A stretch of 64,000 nt of DNA. Source: Schmidtea polychroa (taxonomy: Eukaryota). Shown here piece after piece: positions 9,093 through 34,361 of the stretch. A program made the translations under genes and the position numbers. The notes below the pieces were generated by a model, which ran no database searches, was not told the DNA's origin, and saw nothing but the letters and a program-made list of their open reading frames with translations. Numbering within the stretch: position 1 is the first letter of the stretch; every line of letters begins with the position of its first letter. The DNA is taken from the NCBI GenBank assembly GCA_044892525.1, contig CM097886.1, positions 104,904,001 to 104,968,000 on the forward strand, given 5' to 3'.

Positions 9093-9147
9093 ACTACTAT
9101 ACGAAAATTTTTATTTACAATTATTTACATTGATCATTCATCTTTAA

Positions 9148-11061: not shown

Positions 11062-11279
11062 CTTATCTGAATAACGAGATTATCAACTCAACGTCTCACA
11101 TTTATATTTGTTCTATTATTTATTTATTGTTACGAATATAGGTGGGTTGGGATTTTTCGAGGTTTTCCGCTTAAATTTACCTTTAGTAGATTTGGGGTTT
11201 TTCTACACTAGTATATAATATTTTACTGGATATATACGCCGATATTTACAATTTATTATATACAAAATTATTCGTCTCC

Positions 11280-12668
11280 CTACTCAGTCCTACTCTTCCC
11301 ATCTCGCCTCACCGCTATTTTTATATATATAGTGTCGTTTCTCGTCATATCCTCTACTTTCCGCTGTAGGATGAAATTCGGTGCTCCGGTTGCTGGTCCT
11401 TCTTCTTCCAATGGCCTTTGATAACATACAAGGTTTCCTGCTGTATGGAAACTCTGTTCATGTATACTTTGATAGTTCATCATTGCGAGATCTATTTTTG
11501 CTTTGAACGGCCATTCTATTAACTCGTCGTATAGCCCTTTGCATATCAAGAAGAATATTGAGAAATGTGTTCCGTGCGCACTCCCGTCCCCATTGGGATA
11601 TGCTTTCATTTTCATCTTATATCCGTTTTTCCATGAGTAGAATGCTGGACTTAATAATGTCGTATCCTTTCCATTTCTCGCTCTCTGCATTTTCTCCTTT
11701 ACTTCCGTTATTTTCCATATGTATGGAGCCGTTGGTATCAATTCATTGAGGTTCATTTCACTTACCTTTTGGTGTAGTTCCTTCACCATTTTGTTGCTAG
11801 TTTCTACTAGATCTTTCTGTATCTTTGTACTTAGTCTTGCCTCTTCGAATGCTTCTTTCTCTTGCAATAATTCTTTTACCAACGTTTTTAGCGAAATTAT
11901 TTCCTTTTCCAAATTTTCGGTTTTCCTTTCATTTTCTTGTAATACCGTTGACCACATTTCTGCGTGTGTTGATACGTTCTCTGCTAGATGTTGGGGTAGT
12001 TCTCCTCGGTGTAGTTGTTTCTGACATCCCCATTTTCCTAACACACACATTATCTTTTTCCTTTCACATTCTTTCAGATGTTGAGCGAGTTTTATTACTC
12101 CGGTTTTATCGCATTTGTTGGGACATTCTCCTCTGAATTCTGCGCACACTTTTTCCTCTTGTACGTTATGATGTTGACTCATTAGTTGCCTCCAGGTGTC
12201 GGTTTCTCCGCAATATTCACATTTTTCTAGCCTTTCTTTGCATCGACTTTGATGTTCTGCTTCTTCACTGGCTTTAATCTCTTCTTGGCAACGTTCGCAG
12301 TGACTGACTTTATACTCACACTTCTCCATATGTTGCCTCACTTCCCATATCACTCCTCGCCAATTACATGGGGTGTTTTTACATCCTAGGTTTGCATTCA
12401 ACATATCTTTTACAGCTGCTTTATCTTCGTTTGTATCTCCCAAACTTGTTATCATTGTTTCTTTGCATACTGGGCACCATTGTGGTCCCTTCTTTATTAT
12501 TTCTTCCACACATCCTTTACACATTCTACATCCGCATCTGGTTTGGTGAGGTTCTTTTAATAATCCTTTGCATATTCCACACTTCACATGGTCATGTATT
12601 CGAATTGTGGTGGATTTTCTGACTTGTTCGACAATTTCTTTGAATTCCTCTCGTTGTCGCTTATCCAT
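11280..12668 (-). CDS. traf-like: Full-length intronless TRAF-family protein (RING - TRAF Zn fingers - coiled coil - MATH/TRAF-C)
   Basis: RING CGICKGLLKEPHQTRCGCRMCKGC...CPVC; Zn fingers C.N..C.W.G...H...C.Y; TRAF-C motifs YIWKI, SPAFYS..GYKM..KAYPNGDG..GTHFSIFF, WPF, FI. Confidence 0.95.
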   Translation of the reverse strand: MDKRQREEFKEIVEQVRKSTTIRIHDHVKCGICKGLLKEPHQTRCGCRMCKGCVEEIIKKGPQWCPVCKETMITSLGDTNEDKAAVKDMLNANLGCKNTPCNWRGVIWEVRQHMEKCEYKVSHCERCQEEIKASEEAEHQSRCKERLEKCEYCGETDTWRQLMSQHHNVQEEKVCAEFRGECPNKCDKTGVIKLAQHLKECERKKIMCVLGKWGCQKQLHRGELPQHLAENVSTHAEMWSTVLQENERKTENLEKEIISLKTLVKELLQEKEAFEEARLSTKIQKDLVETSNKMVKELHQKVSEMNLNELIPTAPYIWKITEVKEKMQRARNGKDTTLLSPAFYSWKNGYKMKMKAYPNGDGSAHGTHFSIFFLICKGLYDELIEWPFKAKIDLAMMNYQSIHEQSFHTAGNLVCYQRPLEEEGPATGAPNFILQRKVEDMTRNDTIYIKIAVRRDGKSRTE

Positions 12669-12756
12669 TTCTATAATTATATATATACATATATTCGTTA
12701 CTGGTACATTCTCGTATTTTTATTTACAATTATTTACATGTTGTTTTGGGTCATAT

Positions 12757-13140
12757 TTATTGACTGGAAGAGTCGGCCTCTTGTCCGCCCTCTTCCCTAC
12801 TGGTTAACCATTCTGACCAGTCTTCTATCTCTTCTCTTTCCATTTCTTCAGCGATTCTCATTAACTCTTCCTCCTGTCCCTGACTGTACCGCAATATTCG
12901 CTCTATTTCCCGCTGCATTTGTTCTATCTTCATTCGCTGATCTTCGATTATTCTTACATAACTGAAGCCTTTATTTAAACTTTCGACTAAGCTTCTTTGT
13001 GCAGCGAGTCCTTGTTCCTGTAAATTCGAAATCACTTGAGTTAACATTGCACATTGCTGCTTCCACATCTCCTCGGTTGTCGTACTGTGGTTTACTTCAT
13101 CGTTTATTCGCTCCATTCTTAATTTATTTACACTTTTCAA
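12757..13140 (-). CDS. Accessory small coiled-coil/acidic protein (first ATG at 13116)
   Basis: 127-aa ORF directly downstream of the polyprotein stop, with heptad pattern and acidic C-terminus. Confidence 0.55.
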   Translation of the reverse strand: MKSVNKLRMERINDEVNHSTTTEEMWKQQCAMLTQVISNLQEQGLAAQRSLVESLNKGFSYVRIIEDQRMKIEQMQREIERILRYSQGQEEELMRIAEEMEREEIEDWSEWLTSREEGGQEADSSSQ

Positions 13141-13284
13141 CCCTTATCTAATTTTAGTTTTATGTTAATTGTCCCCATCATTATATAATATTGATACCGC
13201 GCTTATATAGAGATATAGAATACTGTTATATAAATACATATAATGTACTTACTTTTTACAATCTATATACAGTCATAATCCTTT

Positions 13285-16200
13285 CTATATTTGTGAGTTT
13301 GGAGGGCGCTGAGCATTCCAGGCCTCCACCCACTGTTCCTGCTTGATATTACTTGGTCTCTTTACCTGATGTTGAAAATTTCTGATTCTGGCCATCTCCA
13401 GTTCTCCGCGATGCCGTCTATCTTTGATTATTTTTATGGTTCCCCCCATTATGATTAAAAATGCCCCTGCTATTATTATACCGCTGATCCACATCATCTG
13501 TTTCATGCTTATGATTTCCGCTTTTTCCTTGTTCGTTATTGTTGGTATTGCCTCTGTGCTTTTTAGATTACCACCTTTGTCATTTCCTTTTATCATTCCT
13601 CGTATTCTTGCTATTTCTTCGTTCATGCCTTCCTTTGCCATTTTTTGTATTTTCTCCATCTCTTCTTCTGACACGTAATTATCTTGATATTTCTCACTAG
13701 TTTTCTTGCGCTTTTCTTCCTCTTCTTTCTCATCGTTGCTTTTTCTTTTCTTCCCTCTTTTCCCAGGGTATCGTCGACATTCTCTCGCTGTATCGTTTCT
13801 CCAGATGCATACTGTGTATTCTTTTGGAGGTTGTTGCTGTGTTACATATTGTAGATAGTCTTCACCCGGTCCTAATCTTGAAATGCAGACTTTGTGTTCT
13901 TTTCTTGGCTGGAGTTGCGTTATCACTACCTCACCTCCTTTTCTCAGGTGTACCTCCTTCCCTTTGACTTTAGTTATTCTCTTCCCGTCTCGATTCCGGT
14001 ATGCTTCTTGTATTCTTACTTCCGTTATCGGTTCTGTATCTTCATTTATTAATACTAGTCTCCGATATGCTCTCGACATACATCTTCCTAGTATGCACCT
14101 TTCTTTTAGATCCCATTCTTCTTTTAAATCCCATTGTTGCTCTCGTACTTGCTTCTTCTTTTCTTGCTTTAGTTCCTTCTCCTTGTTATCTTTGTTTTCC
14201 GTTTCCTTGGCTTCTTTTATCGTTCTCATTCCACCGTGGGCTGTTATCATTTCTACCATTGTTAGTATGAGTATCATTACCATCATATTTGTCTCCATTT
14301 CCTTGTTGGTAAAAAGTAGGCATACCCTCTGTTTCCCATTATTCGTCTTTTCCTCTTCCTTTGTTCGGCTTCCCGGTTTATTTTCCTCCTTTTTTATACC
14401 TGAGTCGTTATTCCCTTGATTATTCTCCTCTGATTTCTCTTTCTCTCCATTCCCGTTTCGACCTTGTTCATTATTATCATCGTCTTTATCGTCTTTATCT
14501 CCCCCGCTGTCGTTTGAAATGTCGTCCTCGACATTTATGTCGTTCAATAATCTGCGATATGCTGTTAACACTCTATTTCTTGCTAATTTCGCTTCGAATT
14601 CGAACTCCCTTCTGCCTGTTGCTGCATGTCTCTTTCTATTCCATTCTTTTACTAATTCTCTTAATTGTATTCGACGATGTTTTCCGATTCGCTTTTGTTC
14701 GTTTTGATTTTGCGTAAATTTGAGGTCTTCTCTGTTCAATACGATCATTATGATTTTCGGAGTTCCTCCTTTTGTCAGCGTATTTTTAACCATGGCATTT
14801 TCCCCGTTTTCATAGAACTCATTTATGTTTATTGCATATGTATTACTTTGTGGTATTTTCCATGTTAGCAACAACTTCATGGCTTCTAAGTTCTTCCGTA
14901 TCGTGTTCCATTGGAACTGTGACGTGTTTTTACAGATATTTTCTACCTCAGTTCTTGTAGCATTTTTACGAATGAATCTAATCATTTCTAAGTTTGGTTG
15001 TATTGTTGCCCAATCCATGCTAGAATTTCCTTCGTTTGATATTTCGTCAAGTCTCGAACCTGATTGGTGTAGTATGTGTAAAGTTTTCGGGTGTATATTT
15101 GTTATTGCTGCATACATCATTGCTGTTTCTCCTTGTTCGTTTTTTGCATTTGATTCTTCTCCGAAGTCTCTAAGAATTCTTATGATGGTTATTGCTCTGT
15201 TTTCTTTTGCTGCTAAAATGGCTTGTTGTAATGGTGTTCTTGAATCTTTTGTTGGTAAGGTGAATGCTAGTGGTATGAATGTTTTTATTTTACCTATGTC
15301 TAGATTTGTGGTCTGATCTCTTGCGTAGGTGTGTACTGTTTTGGTTATTTTTGCTAGTATCGCTTCATCGGATAGATCTTGCATTTCTTCAAAGAATACT
15401 TCTTTAGCCTTACGTACTACTATCTCTTGGTCGGAGTTTATTGTCTTTGGTTTACTTGTTGTTGCTATATCGGTTATTGTTTGATCGACTTGTTCCTCAG
15501 ACTCTCTTGCTTTTACTTTCTTCATTTTTATCTTTTTCTTGTTCGAACTGTTAATGCGTTCCTCTGCCGTTAGAACTTGGATAATACTTAGGTAGTTTTC
15601 TCGAATGTTGTTCATAGTTTCCATCATCTGTAAAACACTCACGGTTTCCCAAAACTTTACTTGTACTTTATCGGTAAATTGAGATATGGCTTTTTCGAAG
15701 TTGGTAATTCGTTTTCTGATTAGTTGTTCGTCTTTGTGATTTGAAAACTTTATGCCACGTTGTAGTAGTTGATTTGGGATCTCGAATAGGTGATGTCCCC
15801 TCATCGCTTCTCTCATCAAGGTGTTTTCTCCTTTGGTAAATGTTTCGTTTATATCTACCATGTAATCGTTTTTGATCGGGTTTCTCCACGAAATTAGTAT
15901 TCCAGTAATTGTTATTAATTTCTCTTTGATTGCAGTTAATAACCCGTCATACATGTTTCCTATCTCCCTATTATCCTCGTATGATAATAGATCTACTAAG
16001 ATTATGAAGGCTTCCGTACTTTTCCCTTCGATTGCCTGGTGTAGTGCGTTTTTCTGGTTGTGATCTTGTGTGGTTATCTTTGACCCAGTTTCGAGTAATG
16101 CGATGATAATATCTTTAGCTTTATCCCGATTGGCTGCTATCATTAGTGGGGTGTAACCTTGGTTATTTTCTTGATCCGTCGAAATGTTACAGTCGCGGAA

Positions 16201-19200
16201 TGCTTCAATTGTCTCTAGTATTTGTTCATTATAACCAACCTTTAAAAGTTTGTGTAGTGGTGTATCTCCGTAGTGATCTGTGATTGTGAATAATATGGGC
16301 CATTGACTTTTAACTACCCTGAGCAATGGGTGTGTTCTTTCTCGGTTTGCATAGTTTTCTATCATTGTTAGCAGACCTCCCAATATTTCAAAATCTAATC
16401 TGTCTTTTGCCCATCCGGGCATTTTAGCTTTTACTTCCTTTATGATTTTGTCGGCTTCTGATGGTTGTAACCCCAATCGATTACCTGTTGGTTCGTTTAC
16501 TTGCTGTAACATATTTATTCTGTACGTTTGTGATCTTGTCGTTAATGTACGTCCTTCTGGCTGACTGGTGGCGGTTTTCGGAATTGGCTTACATCGTGCA
16601 ACATTTACGTATATTGGCCTTGTGAAGGGATTGTTCACCAATCGTACTCTTACGTTAGTTTCTCCGACGAATAAAATCTCATACGGACCTTTACCGTTTC
16701 GTTGTAATTTTTTAGTGGTTCCTGGAATTAATTCTGGGGTTTCGATCATCACCCAATCACCTGTTTGAAATGTATGTTGTTTGACGTTTTTCTTTCTATC
16801 GTGCAAGTCTTTGTAACTCTCTTGATAAAATTTTATATTCAGTCCTGCAGTTTCCCAGATTTCCTGCATTCTTTCCTTGAACTTTGTTACGTAATCGTCT
16901 ATTTCCATGTATTGTGATATCGGTGGCTGATACTCCAAATCCATTGGCATATTACATTCTCTACCGTACATCAATTTGAATGGACTCATCTTTGTGGACG
17001 CGTGAATCGACATTCTGTAAGCCATTAAACATAATTTTATATACTCGTCCCAGTCTCGTTGATGACGATCGACATAATTTGATAACATTTGAATCAATGT
17101 TCCATTGAATCTTTCTGTCATACCATTAGTTTGTGGATGATACGGTGATGTTCTTAATTTTGCAATCTTGAAGTAATTGGTTACTTCGCTCATTATTTCA
17201 CTCATGAAATTTGTCCCTTGATCAGTCAGTATCTGTTTCGGCGTTCCATACCGGCAACATATTTCCTCGACTAATATTTTCGCGATTGTTTTTGCTTTCT
17301 GGTCTGCCATAGCGAATGCTTCGGGAAATTTAGTCAGATAGTCCGTGATCACCAATATGTAAATATTCCCTCTATCTGATTCCGGAAGTGGACCGACTAC
17401 GTCCATTGATATCATTGTCATTGGTTCTGCCGGTACTGGCATTGGCTTTAACGGTGCTTTCCATTTCGTTCCCGTGTTTTTTCTGGTCGCGCAAGTTATA
17501 CAGTTCTTTACCCATTCCGTTACGTCTTCGGATAGCGTAGGCCAGAAGTATTTTTGTTTCATCCGTGCCAACGTCTTTTTTGATGACATATGTCCTCCGA
17601 GTCTTCCGTCATGATATTGCGTTAGCAAATCTTTACGTCTATTCTCGGGAATGCACATCAGCCTTTTTTCGCCATCCATTATCAACAACCAATCTTTTTC
17701 TATTATATATCGATGTCGATGTTTATCCATATGCTCTTTCAATTTTTGATCTTTCTCATATACCTCTGCTTTCCCTGTTTTTACATATTCGATTATTTGT
17801 TTCAACTCTACATCCTCTTGTTGGTCTTTCCGTAATTGACAAAAATCTAAATCTTCCGCTATCATCAGACATATTCGTTGCGTTTCGTGATCTACTAGGT
17901 CTGGAAAAATAAATCTGGACATACAATCTGCATTGGCATTTGCTCTTCCCGCTTTGAATTTTATGAACGGTGAATATTCTTGTAACTGCATTGCCCATCG
18001 CATCAACCTACTTGAAGCTTCCTTGTGCTGTCCGAGCCATACTAATGGTTGATGATCCGTTGTGATACATATTTCGTGTCCCCATAACAAATATCGAAAA
18101 TGTTTAATCGCTTGTATAATTGCTAACGCTTCTCTCTCGGTTACGGAATAGTTTTTCTCATGCTTTTTAAACGTTCTACTGTAGTATCCGATCACTCTTT
18201 CTTTTCCTTCCTCGTCGAGTTGTCCCAATATTGCTCCGGCTGCATATCCACTTGCATCTGTCGCTAACAAGAACGGTTTCTTGAAATCAGGATGTACTAG
18301 TATTGGAGCTTCAATTAATTTATCTCGTAGTGTTTCGAATGCTTTTTGCTGTTCTGCACCCCAAATAAATGAGATATCTTTTTTCACCAATTCTTGGATT
18401 GGTTTCGCAATACCTGCATAGTTTTTGATGAATTTACGATAATATCCGCATAATCCGAGAAATTCTTGAACTTGGGTGACAGTTTTTGGTGCTGGACATG
18501 TTTTTATTTTTTCTATGTTTCTGGGATCTGGTTCTTTGCCTTTTGCTGACACTATGTGTCCTAAGAACGTAACTTTTTCTTTTGCCCAATCACATTTGGA
18601 TGGTTTAAGCTTCAATTTCCATTGTCGTAATCGGATGAACACGTTTCTAATGTCTTCCAAATGTTGTTCGAAAGTTGCTGAATATATTAATAAATCATCA
18701 ATATATACCATACATTGCTTGATCCCGTGTGTGACAAAATTCATACATCTCTGAAATGATGCTGGGGCATTGGTCAGTCCAAACGGCATTTTCCTGAATT
18801 GGTATAGATCTCGGCCCAATGTGAATGCTGTTTTCTCTTTGTCTTCCTCCTTGACTTTGATCTGCCAATATCCACTTTTCAGATCTAAAGATGTAAAATA
18901 TGCGGCCCCCTGTAACATAAGTAACATCTCATTGATATCTGGTAACGGGTATGTGTCTCTTTTTGTTACTGCATTTAGTTTCCGATAATCGATACAGAAT
19001 CTCTGAGTACCGTCTTTTTTCTTCACCATGACTACTGGAAATTGCCATGGCGAACAACTTGGTTCGATCACTTGTGCATCTAGCATTTTTTGTACCTCTG
19101 CTTCGGCTATCTCTTTTTGCTTTTCTGCTAGTTTGTATGGTCGTAACGCAATTGGGGTTTCGTCTATTAATGGTATTGCGTGTAATGTAACATCGCATGC

Positions 19201-22200
19201 TCCCAAATCTAGATCCGAAATTGCGAATATATCTTTATATTCTATCAATAATTGTTGAAGTCTTTCCTTTTCTTTTTCCGTTAGCAAGGTGCTATCAATT
19301 ATCCATAATTCGTCAGCTTTCGTTGTTTCGTTGGTGATTTTTGGTAATTCGATGTCTATCATGGGTGTCAATCTACCCAATCTTTCATTTTCATATATGA
19401 TCTTGTCTTCTTCCTCGAAATTTGTGATGTTAATTGGTATTTCCCCTTCTTCATTTATTGTTATTATTTCTCTTGCTAATGGTAATTCTCGTCGTTTTTC
19501 GAATGATTTGCTTGGCTCGAAGATGGCTTCTCCTTCCATTCCTGTATCCACTTTTATTTGACATATCATTTGTGATTTTGCTGGTACAATTATTTTCTCC
19601 GGACATCTAATTATTGCGTTCATCTTGCATATTCTACCCATTTTATCTTTTAGACACATGGTTGTTAAATCGATTACTACTTCCTTGAACAATTCCGGCA
19701 TTAAATCCGTTCCGATTATACATGGTTCACTCAGTTTGGGTATTACTGCTAGATACGTTTCAATTTCATTATCTTGATATCGTAACGTAGTCCACCATCT
19801 TCCTACTACGTCTACGGTTTCTTTACTGCAGGCAATAATATGGATAGTTGTTTGTTCGATGTCTTTCCAACATTTACTGGGTATTTGGTTTATTGCTATT
19901 GCTGATACGTTTGCTCCGGTATCTATCATTGCGCTTGTCTCTTTCCCATTGATTTGGATCATGACTGTTACTGCCGCGCCTCCTGGTGAACTCATTACTG
20001 CTATGGTTCTTACGTCATCAGCTTGATCTACACTTTTCGTTCTTCGGGTTGGCATATAGTTCATTCCTGGTTGACTTGGTAACTGTGGATACATATTTTG
20101 TGTCATGGTCAAAGCTGTTTGTTGTCCAATGATATCTGGTGGTATATAACTTGCGTTGGCTATCCAGGTATTTGTTTTTTCTTTCTCCCAATATGGCGCT
20201 GTTTCTATTGGCTTTTCATTCGGGTTTCTACTTGGATATGGATATTTGTCATTCCCATTGTCGTCATCATCACTATCGCTGCTGTTTGATCGATTCCTAA
20301 ATCTGTCTAAGAATTTTGGTTTGTTCTTCTTTAATTGCGCTCTCGTTGCTTCATCATACATCGTTTTCCGAAATCGTCTGCCAACTTCCTCATCTGTCCC
20401 TTTTATTTTTGTCAGTATTTTGATTAATCGTTTTATTCTGTGTATATCTTTAGAATGACCGTGCAACACCATTGTTTTTGCCAAAAATGGTAGAAAACCT
20501 ACTATCAACTTCCAATTTACTTTCTTTTCTCTCTTATAGATATCAAAACACGCTAACATTTGAGTTAATATTACTCTGACAATCTGAATAATTAAGATGA
20601 TTCCTAATATTCCTGCCATCATTTGACCGAACACTAGAAATCTTCCCCACATTGCTTTCATCATGTTTGACGTGGCTTGTTGGAAATGATCCGGTGATAA
20701 TAATAGTTCATAGTTGGGACTTGATTGGAAATTCGTTCCCCCAGTTATGGTAACCATATTTGATAAAATGGATTCCCGTCTTGCTGGGAATAATACGTTT
20801 AATCGTGCCGTTTCTAAATCCTCTGGTGAGTACATACCAGCCTTTGACACATCAATTGGTTTGAAATCCTGTTCTGTTGCAAGCTCTATTAATCCAAACT
20901 TTTTAGGTTCTTGCACTTCTACTTTTAACGGTAACATTATCCATTTCCCATCGGGTTTTTTATATAATGGCCCGTATGCATTTGAACAGTTAAAGGTGTT
21001 CGGATAAAATCCAATTGGGTTCATAATTCTGGTGACGGGTTGAACGAATCTGTTCCGCCCTTTGTAACTAATTTCTAATTCGTTTGCACATTTCCCTGGT
21101 GGAATTGTGGGTTTTCTTGGCAGTCGTGCAAATGTCTTGGTACATGCATATGTATACATTACCTCTCCCACCATTCTGCCAAAATGTCCATCCGGTAACG
21201 GGAGTGATGGCATTGTGTTATCTGGGTGTGTTATTGCGATGGCTAATTTTGTTTTTAGTATTTCTTTATTCAATGAACAGTCATTTTGTATAAGATCGTA
21301 ATATACTTTTTGCATTGTCGTTTGTCCTCGGTGGAACAAGAAGTCCATCTTATTATTGGCATACAGGTACAATTTTATGTCCTCCGTTGCTACCTTTCCC
21401 ACTGCTCGGTCTATTACTTGCCTTGACATGTAGATACCTGCGTAGTTCGTTCGATATACTATACTGTCACATTTGGTGGTCTCTTTCTCTCTGATAAATC
21501 TCATACCGATATCTGGGTCATCTGTAATTAATGCCGTTGGTGTTTTTTGGGTTGTGAGTCTCTTTTCTTTGGGGGATGGCGGAACTGGTTTCCCATTTCG
21601 CATCCTTACGTTTCCATTCTCTTCATCGTCATCTTCGTTTTCATAAATTTCTCCTTTTACTTCATTGAACAAAGCACTTTTTAACAATTGGAGTCGGCAT
21701 TTTTGGGTGTTGGCTTCATATATTATAGTCGAAATTCCCGTTCTACACACGTTTTCCGTAGCTCTGCATGCTGGGTTGGTTTTCATTTGATAATTATTTG
21801 CGTCGAATTGCGCTTCGTACTCCTTCAACTCCACTGTGTAGGACTCAATTACTACTACCCCGGATATTACCTCCCCTCTGATCGTATATGTGCCTCCGTT
21901 ACAGGATCCATCGGTTGATTTTACTCGTCCGGCTACATAGATACTTTCCGTCTTGATCATTCCGCTTTGTCCGTGTATTGTCACTCCATCCCGGATTCTC
22001 ATTGCTCCGGTTCTAAAAAGCTCTTTGCAGTCTTCTCGTTGTATAGGTACTATTTCTTTATCTAATCCGGGTAGTATGAGAGTTGAATAAGAATATTGTC
22101 CACAATAATATGCCAACACTTTCTTTGATATTACGCATTCTCTAGCTTGTGTTCGGATAAAATCTGATTCTTGATATACGTGATAGGAAACTTTCTTCTT

Positions 22201-25200
22201 TACTATATCTAGTTTATTCGGAGATGCTTGTCTGCATTCCTCTATATCTCTCAGGGAGTATTTTTCTCTTAATACCGAATTGTCACAGTCGTAGATTGTA
22301 AATCCAGCTGCTCCGCTGGTACAGAGCATCCATATCATCATGGTCATCATTAGTGAATTAATCGACGCTTTTCTGCTGGCTGGGTCCTTTAATGGCAATT
22401 CCCATTCTAGCTCGTTTAATAATTTTTTCAACCTGATTTGCATTGATCTCTCTTGCTCGTTTTTTCGTGGTGCTTGTATGAGTCTTTTCCACCCTCCGGC
22501 ATGGATAATATGTGGTTCGATTGTACTTTCAATGATTGTAACTGTCATTTCTACATGATTTGCGAATTGTTTGTTAGGTATTTTTCTCGCTGCTAATCCC
22601 ATCAAATTGTACATTAGATACGTTAACACTACTAAATGATGTTCGTCGTCGTTTGCGTTTAGAGTTAATTGTTCGATTACTCTTCTTGTCTCTTCCCAAT
22701 CGGTTTTAGTGGTTTTTGTCTTTTCTTTGATTAATTTTGGAATTATTCCGGATATTGTATTCCATAGCTGTCTGGCATGCACGCTTGCTACTTTTCGTTG
22801 CCATAACCGTCTCAATTGCGGGTTTGTTATTATTAACATATCTTTTACCAGCTCCCGTATCCATTTTTCACCTCTCTCGATTGTTGGTTGAGCCTCTTTT
22901 AGATCCCACACTATTTTATCCAATTTCTCTAATCTGACTTGTCCTTGTTCTTGTTTCAACTGTTCTCTGGTTTTGAATTCTGGTTTTTCTCCTTGCTTCT
23001 TGGGCCTCCCTTTTGCCCGTTTTTCCATCATTGTTCCAGCTTCTCTTGTCTTTTCGTAATTCGGGTTTCTCTCGTTATCTGTTCTTGGCAATGAGCTATC
23101 GTTGTTTCTCAGCCACTCATTCCATTCGTCTATTATTTTGTCTGTTTGACCTTCCGGTGTTACTCTTGTTGGTCCGTTTTGTTTTTGGAATTGTTCGTCG
23201 GTTTCGGTTTCTGTCGTATTATCGATAATTTCCTCAATACTCAACTTACCCGGTTGTTGATAACTAGTTGACGGCTGGCTTGTTGTCCAAATCTCTGCCC
23301 CTGTCGGCCATCTCACTAGTATTGGCGATCTTTCTCCCGCTCCTTCATCGCTGTCTTCCAATATGATCTCTTCGATTTCTTCAGTTTCGTTCGATTTACT
23401 CGCCGCTTTGTCAGGGCTTGGTGTACTCAAGCTACCTTTCGTAGGTTTATCGGATTTACTTTTCTTTTTGATTGGTTTTCCCAATGTTTCTGCCATTGTC
23501 AATACATTGATCTCCCCTAATCTCATGGGTGTTATTCCGACGTCTGCATTATCATCTAATGATTTTCCGAATAGTTGTAGGTGAAATGGAGTTTCGTAGG
23601 CCAATTTCTTTTTTAACTCTCTGATCTTTGTTGTTGGATGCACATCTATATCCTCGATGCTCTTGTCGGGATATTTGACTCGGATACGATATCTTTCTTG
23701 GGTATCTTGTGCCCATTCTTGATTTCTCCATTTTCTAATAATTTGTTCTAGCTGTTCTGGATACCATTCGTTATACTGTCGGTATTCTTCTATCGCCTTC
23801 GCCATCTCTCTTAGATTGTGGATATTTTCTGATGTCTTTAGTATGATGGTAGCTAATGCTACTACTTGTCGCTTTTGATTTTTTGCTCCCATTGCTAAGA
23901 TATCACCTAATTGTTTGTATCTTTCCTTCTCTTCTCGTTCTCTCGCTTCTTTTGCCTCTTCACCGTCTATGTCGGCGTATTCGCGTTCCTTCTTTCTCAT
24001 CGCATGAATATGCCTGATTTCGGTTTCACTTTCTGACGTAACATCCGTTTCGCTTGCGTTGTCCGATATCGATTCCATTTCGTCCTCTTCGTATTTTGGA
24101 GGTTCATCTTCCTCTTCTGCTGATTCACTTCCTATCTCGCCAATGTCTGTTTCTACGAAAATCCCTTTCCTGATTTCCCATTCTTTGTTTTCCGCATTCC
24201 ACATCCTTTCCCATGGAGTTCGTCTGCAAGATCTGGTACTCAGTTTCTTTATTTTTCCTTGAAGCTCTTTTTCCTTTAGCCATTGTTGATGAATTTCAAT
24301 TATCTCCACTGATTTTTGGTATAGCGTTTTCATCCTGTCTCTTATCTCTTTCTGGTATGTTACATCTCTTGTTCGAAATTCGTCCATGGGCAATATTCTA
24401 ATGATTTGATGATTATCCCACATTCCCATTTCACTTAACGAGGTATCGTCTTCAGCCCGTAGTATTATTTTATCGTACATCATGACTACGTCATCTATCA
24501 TACCATCGCTGCTCTCGCTTCGAACTTTTTCCGTTATTTCTTGGTTTATCTTTGATACTAAATCGTCCACCGTATTCTGGTTGCTCATTTTTATTCGTCG
24601 TTTCTCCTCGTTTGGTAACCATATGGTTATTTCCAATTTCTGCGGTTGCGTTTCTTTTAATCTTCCGTATTTGTGGATCAAATTTATGGTTCTCCAATCA
24701 CTCATTCGGAGTAATTCTGTATCTCGCAGTCGGCTCATTAGTTCATGCATGTCGGGAGTTCGTCTTGTTATGAGCAAATCCCAGTTATCTTCAACTTGTT
24801 CTTGGATTTGTTTGATTAATTTATCTAGATTTCGTCTTAGAGTGCATTGTTTTAGTTGCTCCAACTTCAGCTTGATATTAAAGTCATACTCGGCCTTGGC
24901 GTCTTTAGCCCATTCGTGAATATTTGCTGGTTGCTTCTCTTTATGCAACTTCAATATTTGAGTTTCTCCTGGCCAGATCAATGCATCTATTAGGTGCATG
25001 TCTGGTTTGATCTGTTCTCCTTGATATTGATACAGGTATTCTTTCTTTCTCGAGCTGCCCAAATGTTCTCTTATCCAATCGAAAAGCTCGTCTGTAACTG
25101 CATTTTTTATCCATATTCTCTCGAGTCCTTTACTCGTTCCGATTTTTATTACATAGCGTGTTGTCTCTGCTTGTTTCATTTTTTCCATGTACTTCTTTAT

Positions 25201-27159
25201 TATCCTCTTTTCCTCGTTTGGTATTAGATCTTTTTCGTTTCTTTCTAGTTTCATTATCTTTTGTATGAAGCGTCTGTATGGTATAATGTCAATGAAATCC
25301 TGGTTTCTTACTACCACTGGAAGTATTTCTTTTACTTGTTTTATCGCTTCTTCTCTTTCTTTTCTCAATTTCATCTCGATATTCTCATCTTCACTTTCGC
25401 TTGTCACATCGCTTTCACTCTCATCTTCATCTGCTCCGATCTTTTCTCTTAGTTGGTCGATGTTTTCATTTAACTGTAACATTTCTCCACCAAGGCTACT
25501 CACATAATCCTCATCGTCATCTGTTGACAACACCTTCTTTGTTGTCCTCATCATATTAATTCGCAAATTTCTCATTCTTGGTACTTTCCTTAGCTTTTTG
25601 TTCTCGAATATCGTTAGCTCCTCTGAGTCTAATTCTTGTATCATATCATGATTTAGATGATTAATCTGTTTTTCCTTTTTGTTATTTTCTGCTTCTGCTT
25701 CTGGTTTTGATTTCTCATTTTCCCTTTCGATTTTATCTTTTATCTTTTTCCAGAATATTTTCTGAATTCTCTGATTTCCTTTTAGCGGTGTTGTTGGAGT
25801 TTCTTGGTTAGCTGTTGTAATCGTTTCTTTCGGTTTCTCTGGTTCGCTCACAGGTACAACTCTTGGATTTTTACCGTAATTGTAACAATATTGCTCTTTT
25901 ATCTCTTTTACCATTCTCATCATATTTATTCGTAATGGTTGTTCTTGTCGCTGCTGAATTCGTTCTCTTTTTATTCTCTCTTCTTCAGCTTGTAGTCTCT
26001 GCCATTCTTGTGCATGTTGTTGCACTTCATAATTGTTAAGATTCTCGGTACTCCTCATCATGCGTATGTTCTGGGTTTGTTGTGGTACTTGTTCTTGTCT
26101 CGGTCTCATCATTTGTTGCATCATCTGCTTCATTTGTGAAATTTCTTGCATCACATTCATTTGCTTTCCCTCACTGGGGTTACTTTGTCGTTGCGGATTT
26201 GGTGCATAATTATTATTTCGTTGTGGTGGTCGTTGTTGTTGGCCCCTTTCGCGACAGTCTCTTGAGATGTGACCTGGTTGACCACAGTTAAAACATCCTC
26301 TCAATTGACATATATTTTCCGTGTGTCCTCGTCGTCCACACCTATTGCAATTGGCGTTTCTATAACAGTCTCTATCCCAATGCCCTGGTTTACCGCATGT
26401 TCGGCATTGTTTGTTATCGTTCGTATTTCGTCGATTATTAAAGTTGTTCCCATTGTTCGAGTTGTTGCGTTCACTGTTATTTCCATTTGATCGTCCTTGT
26501 GGTGGTTTGAAAATTTGATGCGCACCGGGTATAAACTGATTCATTTTTGGTTCATGATTGTTGTTCTCTCCATTTTCAGTTTTTACCGTTGCTGTTGCGA
26601 TTCTTCCCTCCTCTTGCATGACATTCATTTGTGCCGGGAGGTGAAGTTCGCATCTCGTGGCCCAATCTATGGCCTCCTCTAGTGTTTTACACATTTGACA
26701 TCCCACCGAGGCTCTTACCTCCTCTCGGCGTAGTCCTTCTATGAAATAACCAATTAAATTTTCCTCCGGCAAGTTTCCGTTCATGGCCTTCTTTGCCAAT
26801 CTTCGCAATTCGCTTGCGTATAACGTTATTGATTCATTTGCTCTTTGTTTTCTACTCGCTAATTCTCCTAGGGCTTGATTTATTGGTTTGCTGGCTCCGA
26901 AAGTTTTTCTCAAAAATGTTTTGATGTTTTCCCAATTGTCCAGCTTCGTATTTCTTTCTTTAGCTTCTAAGTACACTTCTAATGCGCTATCGCATAAAAA
27001 CAACGGCATCCGTTTACTAATTGCTTCGGACGTCCATCCACACACATCGATATAGACTTCAAAATTGGTTATGAACGTTGCCAACTTGTTCGCATTCCCG
27101 TTGAATGGCTCGCCTCTAAATTTTTCTTTATACTCGTCGGTTTTTACCCCATTCGTCAT
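13285..27159 (-). CDS. 4,624-aa Gag-Ubl-Bcl2-Env-PR-RT-RH-IN-ankyrin-membrane polyprotein
   Basis: One uninterrupted ORF with all catalytic motifs intact: DTG, YIDD, RNase H DAS...E...D, and integrase HHCC and D,D35E. Confidence 0.97.
   Translation of the reverse strand: [4624 protein letters not shown]
13430..14290 (-). other. C-terminal membrane module: second signal-like segment, FN3-like ectodomain, TM anchor
   Basis: [34 protein letters not shown] resembles FN3 strand F; [19 protein letters not shown] followed by KIIKDRR. Confidence 0.55.
14960..16290 (-). other. Two clusters of ankyrin repeats
   Basis: [18 protein letters not shown]...[40 protein letters not shown]. Confidence 0.85.
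16600..17700 (-). other. int: Integrase (HHCC, DDE core, GPY/F)
   Basis: H....GGH...C..[37 protein letters not shown]. Confidence 0.96.
17915..18290 (-). other. RNase H domain
   Basis: [33 protein letters not shown] and NANADCMSR. Confidence 0.95.
18400..19170 (-). other. rt: Reverse transcriptase domain (Ty3/Gypsy)
   Basis: [51 protein letters not shown] and YIDD (18694-18705). Confidence 0.97.
19640..19975 (-). other. pro: Aspartic protease domain
   Basis: [19 protein letters not shown] (DTG at 19915-19923) and the IIGTD motif. Confidence 0.95.
20460..22355 (-). other. env: Env: internal signal peptide + class III (chuvirus G / herpes gB-like) fusion glycoprotein + TM
   Basis: [23 protein letters not shown]...YSL.DIEEC...C.I.....YYCG; later DC..NKEIL...LA....P......[39 protein letters not shown]. 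This Cys pattern is the one I recall for chuvirus-type glycoproteins. Confidence 0.8.
22474..22870 (-). other. Bcl-2-like domain
   Basis: Helical region ending [14 protein letters not shown], which resembles the BH2 consensus L..WI...GGW. BH1 is degenerate. Confidence 0.6.
23494..25160 (-). other. Three ubiquitin-like (beta-grasp) domains: ~24940-25160, ~24388-24640, ~23494-23695
   Basis: Each ~70-85 aa shows the beta-beta-alpha pattern (I.V.....T..I.V....T...L...I), then an L.Y/F.G..L.D...L motif and a terminal I.L strand. Confidence 0.55.
26255..27159 (-). other. gag: Gag domain: capsid-like region and three CCHC zinc knuckles (26255-26406)
   Basis: [28 protein letters not shown] and [14 protein letters not shown]. 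The upstream region has retrotransposon-gag-like [18 protein letters not shown]. Confidence 0.92.
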
Positions 27160-28376
27160 GATTGGTTCTTGAAACGTTATTATTTCTTTTAAATTTTCCA
27201 GCGATGTAGCTAAACTATGGACGGATAATTCTTCTGTTGACCCGGTTAGATTGTTTGTTATATCGGATAGGCTTTCTCTGCTTCTGGATCGACTGGGCGT
27301 ATGTCCGGCTGTGGGGTTTTCTTGATCGTATATCGGTGTTTTGTGGGGTCTTTTTGCTCCTTGTGATATTCCTCTCTGATGTCTAAATGATCGTCCTCTT
27401 TTGAGTTGGTCTAATTCGTCTCCTGAAAATAATACGTCTCCTGGCTTACTTGAAGATCTAAGGTTGGGTTTATCCGTGTTTCTTTCTTACTCTTTCCTGG
27501 CTTTTCACGTGGATTTTCTACGGTTAGCGTCTGCTGAATTGGTCGAGTTCGGTTCTGATATTGTTTTCCTTTGTGCGGGTTCTGAATTGCTTTTCCTGGG
27601 TTGTTTGTATATTCTCTGGATTCCTTTTGAGCTGGTTCTGAATTGACTTGGTTGGATTGATGTCTACAATGAAAAAATGATATCGTGTTGCATTTGCTTA
27701 CACGAATCAATCATTCCTTTTTACCACATTCAAGCACAGACACCGTTTTTGGGCCTCTGTTATGCTTCTCTTCCTTTCCCCTTACAATTCTTCGTGGAGT
27801 ATAATTACCCATCAACCCATATTTTTCGTCGATTTTAAATTATCTATTTGGGGTAGTAACAATTATCTATATAGTCGCATAAATTATCTATAGTTATCAT
27901 TTATAATATCGATAGGTCGTTGTCAGTTACTGCTTATTACCCCCCATATTTTCCTTAATCCTTTTACGCGGTTCCGCTTATTCAGTTAATCCTTTATCTC
28001 TATTCCCCTTATTTGGTTCTACTCTGTAACCAAAACAAAATTCGTTTAACCGGTTTAAACCAAAAAAATTCTGTAGAACTTTGTCTACCTATCTGGGATC
28101 CCCTTTAATTAATTAATTATTTCCTCTTTGGTTCATCATCTATTCATACTTATTCTTTGTTTCTATTATTCCTAATTCATTTTCCTTTTCCGTTTCTCCT
28201 TCTTCACTAGAAGAATTTTACTATCATCTTTTACGAGCTCGTTTAATCCTTTCTAAATTCAAATTCCATATTTCAAACTCAATTTGCTTCTAGCTAGCTT
28301 TAATATTCTATCTCACTAGTAATTTAAATGTTATCAACTTGTAGCTTAAATGCTATCTCACTATTACTTTAGGCCT

Positions 28377-28592
28377 TTACGACTGGCTGGCACTTTTCAA
28401 CAGCTCAATCTTCATTATCTTGACCGGTTGGACTATTCAACAACTCGATCTTACGACTGGCTGGCACTATTCAACAGCTCAATCTTCTTCTCCTGACCGG
28501 TTGGAGTATTCAACAACTCGATCTTACGACTGGCTGGCACTATTCAACAGCTCAATCTTCTTCTTTTGACCGGTTGGACTATTCAACAACTC
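28377..28592. repeat. 3 x 73-74-bp tandem repeat in the 5' leader, each built from two ~37-bp subunits
   Basis: Units start TTACGACTGGCTGGCAC at 28377, 28451 and 28524. Confidence 0.9.
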
Positions 28593-29190
28593 GGCCTTAA
28601 TATCTCCGACTATGCATGCTTCTACTACTTTCTCCCCTTTTATTCTAACCTACCATTTTCTCAAATTTTACCTTTTACTTTGTCGACCTAATCTTTACCG
28701 CTTTGGAATGTTTCCCCTTTCCCCCCTTGCTCAAAACGCAAAACGATCGCATTGATCCATTTCTACATTGGTATGGTGATCAGCCATACCGCAGAAACTT
28801 TTCAATATTCGCGATGGTACCTCGCCTTACATCCCTTACTCGGGGTGATCGGTTGTCCCTTCCCAAACGGTTCCAATATCGTACCTCCCGAAGGTGGCTC
28901 GGTTTATTCCCCCTTTAACCCTATGATGGGACTAGTTCCACTTTAAATAATCAATTTAAATTTTTAAAATGCCCTTTCTTCATGGTGAAAATTATAACAA
29001 CACAAATCAATTTATAACCTCGTATAATGAAATGAATACACAAAAAGGATTTATTAGTTATTTACTCCACATTACAGATAATATATGCTATCATTATAAA
29101 CATTACCGAATTAAATCAGAACAAAAATATCAAAATGTTTAGTCTAATTGTTAATCATCCAATTTCCTTCACCGAGCAACGATCGCGTGC

Positions 29191-29670
29191 CTAACTGAAA
29201 TAGATTGTGTGCTTCTCTTTTATTACACATGTGCACATAGAACAACGGATTAAATTGGCGGCGCATTCGTCACAATTACTAAGGTGCCCACAAGGTAGAA
29301 TCAGAGTTTTGACAGGTCGCATCTTGCAAATGTTACAAATTCTCAAGGCCGCTGCTTTCTCTACTATTGATGTTCGTATCCGCTGAGACAGAGTTTTGAC
29401 TTGTTCGCGTATCCTCACATATTCGATGTTCAGAGCGGGGTCGTCGAGTCGTTGCTGCATCCATTGGTAATGGGTAGACAAGTCAGTGTTGGTAGTTGTT
29501 GATCCTAATCTGTCGGTTAGAAAGTTTTGTTTGGATATCAGCGGTGCGTTGTGGCGTTGTTGCTCTAAGAGTTCTATTTGTTTCAGTTTCTCTCTTAATA
29601 TCTTTATCGAATCATTTTCTATGTCGATGAATCTGCTTAGCTGTTGTAGATGTTTTCTAGCTTCCGACAT
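29191..29670 (-). CDS. Coiled-coil + C-terminal IAP/Mdm2-type C3HC4 RING protein (putative E3 ligase)
   Basis: CNICKMRPVKTLILPCGHLSNCDECAANLIRCSMCTCVIKEKHTIYFS. The terminal RING plus hydrophobic tail is typical of IAP-like RINGs. No BIR domain. Confidence 0.88.
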   Translation of the reverse strand: MSEARKHLQQLSRFIDIENDSIKILREKLKQIELLEQQRHNAPLISKQNFLTDRLGSTTTNTDLSTHYQWMQQRLDDPALNIEYVRIREQVKTLSQRIRTSIVEKAAALRICNICKMRPVKTLILPCGHLSNCDECAANLIRCSMCTCVIKEKHTIYFS

Positions 29671-30107
29671 ATCTAAATGAAGGTGTTGTTATTATTTTGT
29701 TCCTGCTGGTATTAACAATAATATTATTATGTTTGTATTTAATATTCGTTGACTTTTATGTGTTAGTGTTTTAACTTTTGTATTTTATTCGATCTTTGAA
29801 ATTCCTCTTTCATATTTTTTCGCTTTAATCATTTACTTTCTTTCGTCCCCCCTTTTATTTTAACCAGTTAATATTAACTACAATAACTAATTCCCGTTTT
29901 CTTTTCTCATCATGCCTCATCACATTCATTCCAACTCATTTAGGTTCGTTTCATTCACCACATACTCTATTTCAAACTCAGACAGTTCGTATCATTTCAT
30001 TGCGCTATAATTCGTTTCAGCCCCGATTCCATTCTTATCATAATTAATTAGATTGTTAATCTAACACATCATAACACAAAAATAGACAATCAAACAAATC
30101 ACTGTAA

Positions 30108-30125
30108 ATCCCGGCTGAGCCCCCA
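30108..30125 (-). promoter_or_regulatory. Primer-binding site, tRNA-Pro type (TGGGGGCTCAGCCGGGAT)
   Basis: Matches the classical tRNA-Pro PBS TGGGGGCTCGTCCGGGAT at 16/18 positions. Starts 7 nt after the 5' LTR. Confidence 0.85.
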
Positions 30126-30132
30126 AAAATCA

Positions 30133-33100
30133 TGTTGGCGTATGTGGAGAAGAGAGAAAAATATGCATGCCTTTCCATCACACCTATCAAGCATCATCAC
30201 TCCGTTATACATTTTCTACACATACTCCAGATGATTGATCGCATATTCCCACATATGAGCCCATGGTGATGTTCCATGTTGGTGCTGCTCACACGGGTCG
30301 GAAAAGGTTAGCAGGTGAGCCCCTGCCTTAGGACTACTCCTAACCCTTTCTCGGTTCGGGTCCTACGGTGCCTTAGAAGGTCTTACCCACATACATGCGT
30401 ATCACTCGGTCTGATCCTGGTCCAAAGGAACAACCTTCAACCCTAATTACCTTCATTCCGCAGCATTATCTCATCTACTCTAATTGCACAAACAAATGTA
30501 TGAAAACTTGACAAAACTGAAATCAAACAGAAAATTTTATTGACACTGAAACGATAAAAATATCATTACCACTAACAGATCAACAGCAGTCAAAAATATA
30601 TAACATTAGCAGAATTCACAAGGTAATTTACAACTCGATGAAGAAAAAATCAAGCTCAATTGTACGTCGCGTTAGACAAAGTCATCCCCACCTGCAAGCA
30701 TCTCATCTATGTCGACCGGTAATCGGCTATCTACAATATATTTGATGCCCCCGGCCGGAACAATGCGGAAGACTTCTTTCGAGGGGATTGAATGGGTGGA
30801 CGATATTTCTTGGATTTTTGATTGCGCCGCCGATAAGGACGCCTCGAGTGCTGTCATCGCATCTCGGCGTTTTTGATTCTTCTCGGCTCGAGTTGGCCGT
30901 TTCCGTTTGCGAGGTGGCAGATTATCTCCTACAGCCGTGGTGACACTAGATGCCACGAGAATTGGAGCCAGAATTGGGTCCGAAGGACCGCCTACCTTTG
31001 GCTGATGGCCTGACAACACTGGGGCTGGAATGGGCGGCAGTTGTGAGCCGTGCCCCTGACAGTTCGAGCTGGAAGATGTAGAAGACTGGTGGTGAAGGGG
31101 AAAGACATTCATCCCATCCAGAACGGGAAATTCTCGCACCCGCTTCGCCAGTTCTGCCTCCGTATATACTTTATGGAGGGCTTCTGATTGTGCTTTGATA
31201 GTGAGCCGCTGGCAACGGCTTTCCTCTAGCAGGCTGTCCCTGCAATGCTCCAATCGGAGAATTTTCTTGCGTTCCTCTTTCATTTGTGGCGGGGAGAACC
31301 ACGTTCCTTCATAGAGATCAATTCTCTTTTTGAGAGCCCCGATATATAAGTGAAGTTGGGCGATATCCGCGTTCTTGTCCGCACAAGAAAAACACGGGCG
31401 AAGTTCTTTGGCGTTGTTGTACGATGTAGCCATCTAGAAAATCAATCATTGTTTATGTTTACTCGAAAAACCTCTATCAGTGCGATAAAAATCAAATTTT
31501 GGGGCATGGTTTTGGAGTTTTATCAAACATACCACCCAACAATGACCCACAGACCTCTTCATCCATCTCTATTCGCAGTCATTCAGTTGCAAGCATTCAA
31601 ATCTCTTCACCTGATTCGTGTAAATTAAGAAAAGCAAACGGGGATTTCATGCACAAAATTCTCCCTCTCTAAACCTCGCCCTTTGGATTTGTTTTCGGAT
31701 GGGACAATTCCCAGGTAAAGCTCGTCTTTTACTTTATTCCCTTCAACCTTGTTCCCCTTAGTATATTTTTATTTAAAAATTTGCCGATATCATTATGGCA
31801 ATCCGTCGATGTAGGCGTACCTAAAATTACAGAGAAATAATTCACGGCGACGGAATAGATTATTTATGTTTTTATCTCGTTCAAAATTATGGAATTGATC
31901 ATGTAATCAGTTGAAAATTCAGCTCTAAATCTACATCTAATTAATTCCAATAACGCGTCGAAATCGTCGTCATGGAAAACGTTTACTTGTGATTATGCAT
32001 TATGACTGAATGTGTAGGTGTGTCATTACTCCTGGTGGTATCTGTAACTGTATGTTGGCTATCACCGCGAATGATGGTTTATGCTGTTATGAGAAATTAT
32101 TATATATCGAGTTGTGTAGGGGAAATCCATTCCTTTACTTCATCCTATTATCTCGCTGTTCTAGAAAAGTTCATATTATCATGCCGCTATTACATCACCA
32201 AAAATCGTGGATTTACTTTTACACTGCCCTATGTAGACTTGACTGTGGTGTGCGTGTGTATGTGCATTCTCAAGTCGGAATAATATGGGTTGCGTAATAG
32301 ATTCCTCAAACAAGCAGCCGTAGACGAATCGGAAAGTCAGATTAATCAATCTGAGTAGGCGACAAATTAGTAGATTATTGAGTAAGCTCGATGTTATTAT
32401 CTAATTCTCTTTCACGATATTAATTCAGGCCAATGACTATCAGCTTATCCATTTGACATTTCTCCAGAAAACCGACACGTTATCTCTTTCTCTAGGACAT
32501 TATCCGCTATCTCCTGTCGACTAACTCTACGCTGGCTAATGTAAATCAACTGATTTCGTTATCGTTGGCAACTATTGCCTGCGAGCTCGAAGTGAGGATT
32601 TTGATAATTTCACTGCAAGATGTTTACTTTCCTGTCAGCGAGAGATTTTTTATCACTGGCATCGGCGATTCAAGGACGACAGTTCCATCGTAAGAGTACA
32701 TCGATAATGGATGTAGCCGCTAACGTTTTGACGGCACAAATCAGACAGAGCCTTGCAAATGCAGTACGTTGCAGAAAAATCGTTGGATTTACTCGCAATC
32801 TATGGTCAACACTGTTCTTTCCCAACTACGTCGATCGAAAGGCTGAATATCATGAAAAATTTTCTCCTAGCTATGTGGATTATTATCGAATCAGTATGAA
32901 CGTCAATGCCAATCTCGATCTGAATTATCTGCATTCGAAATTTAAATCATCTCTACAACTATTGGAAATCTCGGTGTGACTAACTGAACCGATGGTACGC
33001 TCTATGGACGATCGCGCTTGATGAAGGAAATTTCACTTCCCAACTGGATTTTCCACCTACTGAGTTTCTTCACCCCTCATGACACACCCAAGAAGGCATT

Positions 33101-34361
33101 CATTGCTGCCACCTTCTTGCACCGTCATGAGGGACCAATCAACTCGTTTCCATTCAATTAAATCAACAATAAAATAATCAAAATGAATGATGGGTAAATG
33201 CATAAATAAAATTTACCCGGCGACCATATCATTTGGACTCCAAGTATGATGTTGCTCATCCTACATAATCGAAACCTCATCGTCTCCTTGGTGGATCTCT
33301 AATATGACAACTACCACTCTCTGTAAATATCGCATTCGCATTTCAGCATGTTCGTGATTTCTTATGAAGACCAACCTTCTACTGTGGTGGTTCTCTACCG
33401 CAGTACAATTCCAACTCGTCCACATCATACTGGGAGTTCTCAGATGGTACAGTCGCCGGCACCATGAAGAAAGGCAGCTTTTCATTTAAATAAATTTATT
33501 GTATGAAATTGTTTTTATTATATTTATAACCATTAACGAAATTAAACTAACAACCATAAATAAAGCAACTGTCGAGACATACCTTGAGTTTCGAAAACTG
33601 GAGTTAAATCGGTTGAATTTAAAATTTGTCCTGAATAGATTTGTGGTTTGGCCTCTATATATTCCTTCCTCGGTTTGGTTTGGTAGTCTCTGAACTAGTT
33701 CGCTGTAGGATAATTTAGTCAAAGGTTCCGAAATCTGTAAAGTCTGTAGAATATTTTTTAAAAGTGGTCATAACGAACCAAAGTTTACCTGTAGAATATT
33801 TTTTAAAAGTGGTACTCTACAGATATTTTCCGTTCCTTATATATTATTTTTCGTCCAATCAGGACACGACTTGTTTGTATTTTTACTATTTATTATTATT
33901 TTTATGTTTTTTATTATAATATATTAGATTTTAATGACTTAACTTATTTCTTATTATTATTTTATTTATTTTCTTATTTTTATTATTTTCCTCCTATTTT
34001 TCCTGTGGATTTATTGCTACTTTATTGTAATATAATTTTTTGTTTTAATTAGACTTAAAGATAGTTTTATTTTTATTTATTTCTTAAATTTCTCGTTTAT
34101 TTGTTGTCACTTTTTTACTTATTCTATTCTATTTCATCTGCTGGGTCCTAAATCGCTTTATTTCTAAATCTTAAGGGGTTTATTGGGTTTTATTTAGTTT
34201 GTTTTACTTATTCTTATTCTCTTATTGATATTTTATTGTTCCTTTTTGATTTATTAGTGGGAATTTGATGGTACTTTATATTTTTATTTTATTTCGTTTA
34301 TTTTTCAAGGATTACTTTTCTATTCGCTCCAGTTTTCGAAACTCCGCGTTTTAGCCCAACA
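30133..34361 (-). repeat. 5' LTR (4,229 bp)
   Basis: Near-identical to 3997-8225; I saw one substitution (ccctgtctc ~4212 vs ccctttctc ~30348). Followed on the - strand by the PBS. Confidence 0.97.
30672..31433 (-). CDS. LTR-encoded 253-aa protein (copy in 5' LTR)
   Basis: Translation identical to 4536-5297. Confidence 0.65.
   Translation of the reverse strand: MATSYNNAKELRPCFSCADKNADIAQLHLYIGALKKRIDLYEGTWFSPPQMKEERKKILRLEHCRDSLLEESRCQRLTIKAQSEALHKVYTEAELAKRVREFPVLDGMNVFPLHHQSSTSSSSNCQGHGSQLPPIPAPVLSGHQPKVGGPSDPILAPILVASSVTTAVGDNLPPRKRKRPTRAEKNQKRRDAMTALEASLSAAQSKIQEISSTHSIPSKEVFRIVPAGGIKYIVDSRLPVDIDEMLAGGDDFV

Follow-up and report, generated by a model that had tools for sequence, protein, structure and literature searches.

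In a 64,000-nucleotide stretch of the Schmidtea polychroa genome (hereafter, the window), a Bcl-2-like domain is encoded in frame with, and just upstream of, the predicted signal sequence of a gB/chuvirus-type envelope protein (Env). The question raised by this locus is whether one hydrophobic segment serves both neighbors, delivering Env to the membrane and, once cut by signal peptidase, remaining on the Bcl-2 domain as a C-terminal tail anchor, as the original prediction had it. The reading preferred here, at a probability of roughly 0.55, is that the Bcl-2 domain ends the Gag side of the polyprotein, and that the predicted Env signal would tether the Gag-to-Bcl-2 piece to the ER membrane on its cytosolic side, probably as an anchor for the Gag side in general and not as a Bcl-2-specific tail. 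The features needed for the argument are as follows (positions in the window).

3997..34361, minus strand: Burro-type giant Ty3/gypsy LTR retrotransposon (gag-env-pol), about 30.4 kb
29191..29688, minus strand: accessory RING ORF, next to the 5′ LTR on its inner side (Pfam zf-C3HC4_3, E 3e-8)
13285..27486, minus strand: one open frame of 4,733 codons, first ATG at 27159
22996..23019, minus strand: AT-hook-like basic motif RAKGRPKK, about 45 aa upstream of the Bcl-2 domain
22465..22875, minus strand: predicted Bcl-2-fold domain, aa 1538-1674, eight predicted helices (profiles, predicted model, selection)
22639..22650, minus strand: BH1 position, with DDEH replacing NWGR (profile alignment to host Bcl2-2 and motif table)
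22489..22521, minus strand: BH2 motif IEPHIIHAGGW, ORF aa 1656-1666
22354..22488, minus strand: linker of 45 aa with one predicted helix
22303..22374, minus strand: predicted internal Env signal sequence, with RK n-region, 11-residue core and CTSGAAG c-region (hydropathy); predicted signal-peptidase cut after 22303
20566..22302, minus strand: gB/chuvirus-type Env ectodomain and TM helix (20566-20622) (PF24664, E 2.9e-72; hydropathy)
17134..19965, minus strand: protease, RT, RNase H and integrase (Pfam)
13426..14298, minus strand: second signal-like segment (14230-14298), predicted ectodomain of ~250 aa and TM (13426-13482), after the ankyrin region (hydropathy)
11280..12719, minus strand: accessory TRAF-like ORF (RING, MATH), downstream of the polyprotein (Pfam)

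The element is young. Its two 4,229-bp LTRs (3997-8225 and 30133-34361) differ by 1 mismatch, its termini read TG...CA, and a 4-bp target duplication (GTGG) is present. The ORF runs through Gag, CCHC knuckles, a ubiquitin-like region (a weak match, E 0.021), the Bcl-2-like domain, Env, protease, RT, RNase H, integrase, ankyrin repeats and a C-terminal membrane protein; Pfam matches were obtained for Gag, the knuckles, PF24664, protease, RT, RNase H, integrase and the ankyrins. With a length of about 30 kb, long LTRs and a single ORF holding gag, BCL2, env, pol and ankyrin, the element has the characters of Burro and of GAG-ENV-POL gypsy elements, its kinship to Burro elements being judged from the published description. 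A 216-aa query region yielded 150 scored genome matches at 91-100% identity, from 1,091 candidates. No match to a simple BIR pattern was found in the scanned non-ORF parts of the element, and among the joints listed for the contigs of four runs none fell within 22300-22900, which neither supports nor opposes splicing. The AT-hook-like motif RAKGRPKK is the only GRP[RKP] in the ORF, and such a motif lies upstream of Env in 10/15 rows, with and without Bcl-2; two in-frame Met codons are found a few residues upstream of it (22996-23031). Each LTR holds an identical 253-aa ORF (4536-5297 and 30672-31433), and three more minus-strand accessory ORFs (217-351 aa), coiled-coil-like and one of them with hydrophobic segments, occupy 8457-11079 between the TRAF-like ORF and the 3′ LTR.

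Burro and GYPSM1 are giant gypsy-like LTR elements of planarians (Jurka 2007; Grohme 2018), for which BCL2 is listed and env is placed between BCL2 and protease (PMC6431247). The element in the window has the same order of BCL2 followed in frame by Env; it differs from the described Burro in the TRAF-like ORF downstream of the polyprotein. The BCL2-Env fusion in Burro is thus already published, and because this arrangement is in print, the present analysis adds detail and not a new system, namely evidence from structure and selection that the BCL2 motif of Burro forms a complete fold and has been maintained, a map of its departures from pro-survival Bcl-2 proteins, and a topology, open to testing, for the polyprotein as a whole. 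In the portion of that account concerned with these elements (PMC6431247, section 7), neither an internal signal nor a tail anchor is mentioned, nor that NWGR is lost or that a second signal/TM unit exists. No paper on a tail anchor in Burro was found, though Grohme 2018, Lee 2026, Terasaki 2013 or their supplements may treat it. In GAG-ENV-POL errantiviruses of the HSV/gB type (Chary and Hayashi, eLife 2026; PMC13524379), Env also lies between gag and pol (Platyhelminthes, Nematoda and Bryozoa, with Smed elements listed), and the ectodomain is flanked by a signal peptide and a TM or by two TMs; neither "Bcl" nor "Burro" occurs in the main text of that paper.

The interval singled out in the original prediction (22474..22870) does translate to an entire helical domain (aa 1540-1672), and the BH2-like motif claimed for the end of the bundle, IEPHIIHAGGW, is present there. 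The window copy by itself matches the Pfam Bcl-2 family weakly (E 0.035-0.076, under the curated cut-off), and phmmer of the single domain sequence against the PDB gave no match at E ≤ 10. A profile was therefore made of 16 aligned retroelement sequences, without any cellular Bcl-2, the rows being drawn from other families in the genome and from distant relatives in the protein library (25 matches). This retroelement-only profile matched Bcl-xL at E 3.6e-6, and 14 of the 16 aligned relatives matched Pfam Bcl-2 (PF00452) at E ≤ 1 (best, 8e-7). Two AlphaFold models (pLDDT 71 and 75, the latter with pTM 0.71) were submitted to Foldseek, a comparison that the original prediction had proposed; with both, the top PDB matches listed were Bcl-2-family chains only, the best at E 0.01 and none with either model at E ≤ 0.001. 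The top rows in BFVD were viral Bcl-2 homologues, and those of poxviral proteins were weak (E > 0.1). When aligned with Hydra Bcl-2-4 (6wgz_B) by VIA-align, which re-examined Foldseek's own matches and in which Z values of about 13 can arise for helical bundles, the model gave Z 14.5 and an rmsd of 2.5 Å over 137 aligned residues; the TM from Foldseek was 0.77, and the top VIA rows listed were likewise all Bcl-2-family chains. In the predicted model, eight helices form a bundle about a hydrophobic central one and can be superposed along the full length of the domain, which shares its fold, BH2 and a BH4-like first helix with Hydra Bcl-2-4, Bcl-xL, ASFV A179L and BHRF1. Unlike these, the Burro domain is without NWGR and embedded in a polyprotein, and its identity to cellular and viral pro-survival Bcl-2 proteins is 7-16%; between retroelement families, the fold is retained at 13-27% identity. 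Profile, matches of relatives and overlay thus bear out the Bcl-2-like domain that had been claimed, which, to judge from alignments and models, is a diverged Bcl-2-fold domain.

Conservation of GGW among copies had been named as a test of the original prediction, and GGW was found in 34/34 fetched copies of the window's family, which were chosen by similarity and comprise 11 distinct sequences. In the wider alignment of 16 rows, GGW is present in 11, KFW in four and QGW in one, the tryptophan being invariant (16/16). The BH2 pattern W-x4-GGW is recognizable, the window copy reading H-IIHA-GGW. BH1 is another matter: NWGR is DDEH in the window's family, and across the 16 rows W is found in none, G in 4 and Lys/Arg at the Arg position in 13, the rows without Lys/Arg being those of the window's family. 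A canonical BH3 Gly-Asp was not seen in the domain. The BH1 Gly and Arg matter for BH3 binding, and binding persists, at reduced strength, in a viral protein that has SPGR (PMC9027176). As these two residues matter and NWGR reads DDEH, canonical BH3 binding is doubtful in the window's family on sequence grounds, and more plausible in the sister families; with NWGR lost, any such binding would probably be weak or non-canonical. The domain is under purifying selection. Between subfamilies, its dN/dS was 0.04-0.29 in 6/8 pairs, the other 2 being saturated, and pooled pN/pS was 0.16 for the Bcl-2 domain, 0.27 for the upstream region and 0.09 for signal plus Env (the Env value of the pair L001/L114, at 39% identity and with a likely frameshift, was excluded). 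Two compact families (L104-L106 and L119; open frames of about 3,370-3,520 aa) have KFW in place of GGW, keep the BH1 Gly and have a linker of 30-33 aa. In the L067 copy, the frame exits the linker into unrelated sequence, probably by deletion, and a different hydrophobic segment follows Bcl-2.

A hydrophobic signal had been placed ~40 aa after BH2; the core, LMMTMMIWMLC, begins at aa 1712, 45 residues past the BH2 tryptophan; A-A-G|F-T-I-Y-D-C, where the Env region starts, comes after it. Its position holds, and a cleaved signal serving as a Bcl-2-type tail anchor would be topologically sound. No adaptation for such a role was found. Thirteen Bcl-2-bearing elements were compared with 7 Bcl-2-less ones (Bcl-2 profile score ≤ 1.6 bits), a small set of related rows, using Kyte-Doolittle hydropathy values and a scripted (-3,-1) rule. 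In all 20 elements, the segment lies 19-29 residues before the Env YDC (19-24 in the 7 Bcl-2-less ones). The best 11-residue hydropathy was 2.78 for Bcl-2-bearing (n = 13) versus 3.06 for Bcl-2-less elements (n = 7), that over 19 residues 1.71 versus 1.90, and the uncharged run 13.2 versus 12.3 (p > 0.15 in each case). Small residues occupy -3/-1 at one offset in 10/13 Bcl-2-bearing and 7/7 Bcl-2-less elements; this offset is the best of 11 (17/20 rows, the next reaching 13/20). A basic n-region, a short hydrophobic core and small -3/-1 residues before an ectodomain are the marks of a cleavable signal. Because place, hydropathy and cleavage site are alike with and without Bcl-2, the segment is best read as Env's predicted cleavable internal signal, retained in elements that have Bcl-2 and in those that lack it. 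The claim that one segment serves both domains found no support beyond geometry, the segment being indistinguishable in Bcl-2-less elements; a comparison of 13 with 7 rows is compatible with subtle anchor adaptation.

To reach mitochondria, Bcl-xL needs at least two basic residues on each side of its membrane span (PMC2172731). In the window, RK precedes the core and no basic residue follows it up to the predicted cut, and two basic residues after the span were found in 0/13 Bcl-2-bearing versus 2/7 Bcl-2-less rows. The 19-residue mean of the window segment is 1.40, compared with 1.03-1.44 for the C-terminal tails of standalone Bcl-2 genes (5 control rows, all from the same genome). Since its hydropathy lies in the range of natural tails, the segment could work as a membrane anchor. 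The linker of these standalone genes is 25 aa, versus 45 aa in the window.

Between Bcl-2 and signal, the linker measured 30-51 aa in 12/12 Bcl-2-bearing rows, deep lineages included, while the distance from knuckle to Env was 565-1,320 aa (6 rows). An Env tree of 19 rows, with long branches and a midpoint root (P0005, P0008 and P0016 were omitted for short Env), requires 4 changes in Bcl-2 presence, at least 2 of them forced, and a single Bcl-2 clade was rejected (p-AU 0.005); on these grounds, the adjacency of Bcl-2 and signal is probably old. Four Bcl-2-less elements make up a starred clade that groups beside a Bcl-2-bearing element as its sister (97/97), and they have retained the signal. 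The notion that the signal predates a Bcl-2 insertion was dropped, because the tree favors an old Bcl-2 with losses, or several gains. A linker kept short and an old adjacency would also be given by selection for membrane proximity.

A single frame runs from Gag through Bcl-2, signal, Env, TM, Pol and ankyrins to a second signal-like segment and a final TM, and its four predicted membrane crossings form a consistent topology in which Gag, Bcl-2 and Pol are cytosolic. Given this topology and the conserved (-3,-1) site, the signal would remain, once signal peptidase has cut, as the C-terminal end of the upstream piece. In the preferred reading of a general Gag-side anchor, the signal would insert cotranslationally and be cut after A-A-G, freeing the Env N-terminus in the lumen, and would stay on the upstream piece, holding Gag beside Env at the ER in the manner of flavivirus anchor-C and the HCV core E1 signal. 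In flavivirus anchor-C/prM and HCV core/E1, the cytosolic capsid protein carries at its end the signal of the glycoprotein that follows, and after the signal peptidase cut, a viral protease or signal peptide peptidase (SPP) removes the anchor (PMC7601889). These are RNA viruses without Bcl-2; the processing of Burro is a prediction. Either the element's protease or SPP would then likely trim the piece, leaving Bcl-2 ER-bound for a time or released, and Bcl-2 would likely dampen host cell-death or stress signaling together with the RING, TRAF and ankyrin cargo. The layout of a domain followed by a signal is repeated at the ankyrin end of the ORF; with another signal-like segment and a TM behind the ankyrins, this layout is a general result of the topology of this polyprotein. 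Such a segment and TM after the ankyrins are also found in the relatives P0002 and P0022, and a signal-like segment in P0007. The C-terminal unit itself (13426-14298) is likely a second surface protein; its ectodomain gave no convincing Pfam match, looks FN3-like by eye, and showed no similarity to P0022 by BLASTP.

In Rift Valley fever virus, signal peptidase releases NSm from NSm-Gn-Gc, and NSm resides in the mitochondrial outer membrane via its C-terminal TM (PMC4926171). This TM probably corresponds to the Gn signal. NSm offers a precedent for an alternative that is unlikely but topologically sound: the protease of the element would release Bcl-2 from Gag, the Env signal would stay on as a true tail anchor, and the resulting membrane protein would neutralize host Bak, Bax or BH3 proteins. 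Like the protein envisaged here, NSm is anti-apoptotic, lies ahead of a glycoprotein, is freed by signal peptidase and is held in the membrane by a C-terminal TM; it differs in its small size, a start codon of its own and its mitochondrial destination (PMC4926171, PMC7922539). The Burro domain sits behind ~1,430 residues and is without a basic C-flank. The short linker kept across deep lineages, a hydropathy within the range of natural tails and the whole-domain overlay with BH3-bound pro-survival proteins all speak for this alternative. The segment, however, is no different from Bcl-2-less signals, the linker exceeds the 25 aa of standalone tails in the same genome, and BH1 has W in 0/16 and G in 4/16 rows, with DDEH in the window's family. 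Moreover, with about 1,430 Gag-side residues ahead of it, Bcl-2 could become a free tail-anchored protein only if a protease cut on the N-terminal side of the domain and nowhere beyond it; the N-terminal cut is so far hypothetical, and the anchored piece would otherwise be Gag-...-Bcl-2 and not free Bcl-2. The 40 kb around two host exons yielded no clear BH3 exon of a host Bak or Bax. It is a tentative idea that in an old lineage of enveloped retrotransposons one helix delivers Env and then anchors a protease-freed Bcl-2 that keeps the host cell alive during retrotransposition, and a similarly speculative one, by analogy, that this dual-use helix may be the retroelement counterpart of phlebovirus NSm, conserved via the 30-51-residue spacing. 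If true, a signal peptide would be reused as a tail anchor in a retroelement. According to Lee et al. (Dev Cell 2026, as cited in PMC13465017), an IAP region of Burro1 protects planarian stem cells; if such elements do supply another anti-death factor, bound to the membrane, this would bear on how a transposon buys host tolerance.

The loss of NWGR, together with the TRAF-like and RING ORFs of the element, would also suit a soluble Bcl-2-fold protein, released by a cut within either the linker or the signal, that has a non-apoptotic role alongside the TRAF, RING and ankyrin cargo, for example in innate-immune signaling. Helix-breaking residues are a feature of SPP substrates, and C-T-S-G lies within the signal. 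Poxviral Bcl-2-fold proteins act on innate-immune signaling, and poxviral rows appear in BFVD, weakly (E > 0.1); the analogy is tentative, and the best structural rows are pro-survival Bcl-2 proteins and not of the A52/K7 type. A soluble role is rather improbable. Quite improbable is a stable Env leader made of Bcl-2, linker helix and signal, staying with the spike or binding Gag in a structural assembly role. By eye, the predicted linker helix has look-alikes before the signal in Bcl-2-less relatives, and in-frame Met codons stand shortly before the basic motif, but Met codons are common, Bcl-2 is absent from 7 relatives with an intact-looking Env, and the analogies with foamy viruses and arenaviruses are tentative. 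That the domain is a decaying passenger without function can hardly be maintained: it is lost or absent in several lineages and its motifs are eroded, but purifying selection acts between subfamilies whose synonymous sites are near-saturated, and the fold is kept at 13-27% identity between families.

Other Bcl-2 genes of the same genome were also encountered. A host Bcl-2 gene, 99% identical to Bcl2-2 of S. mediterranea, ends 16 aa past GGW, without a TM; at least 7 near-identical copies of this host Bcl2-2 lie on contig C4 at about 89.9-90.8 Mb (L031-L037). Multi-copy standalone Bcl-2 genes with a C-terminal hydrophobic tail of their own, some with an intron (L046-L060 and L129-L131), adjoin TBP-like, protease-like, ATPase-like and integrase-like ORFs and appear, by eye, to belong to Maverick/Polinton elements. 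Beside the Burro element, the window itself holds, again by eye, Maverick/adintovirus-like gene sets with inverted repeats (36863-50777 and 56142-59458), comprising capsid-like, integrase, ATPase, protease and DNA polymerase B ORFs.
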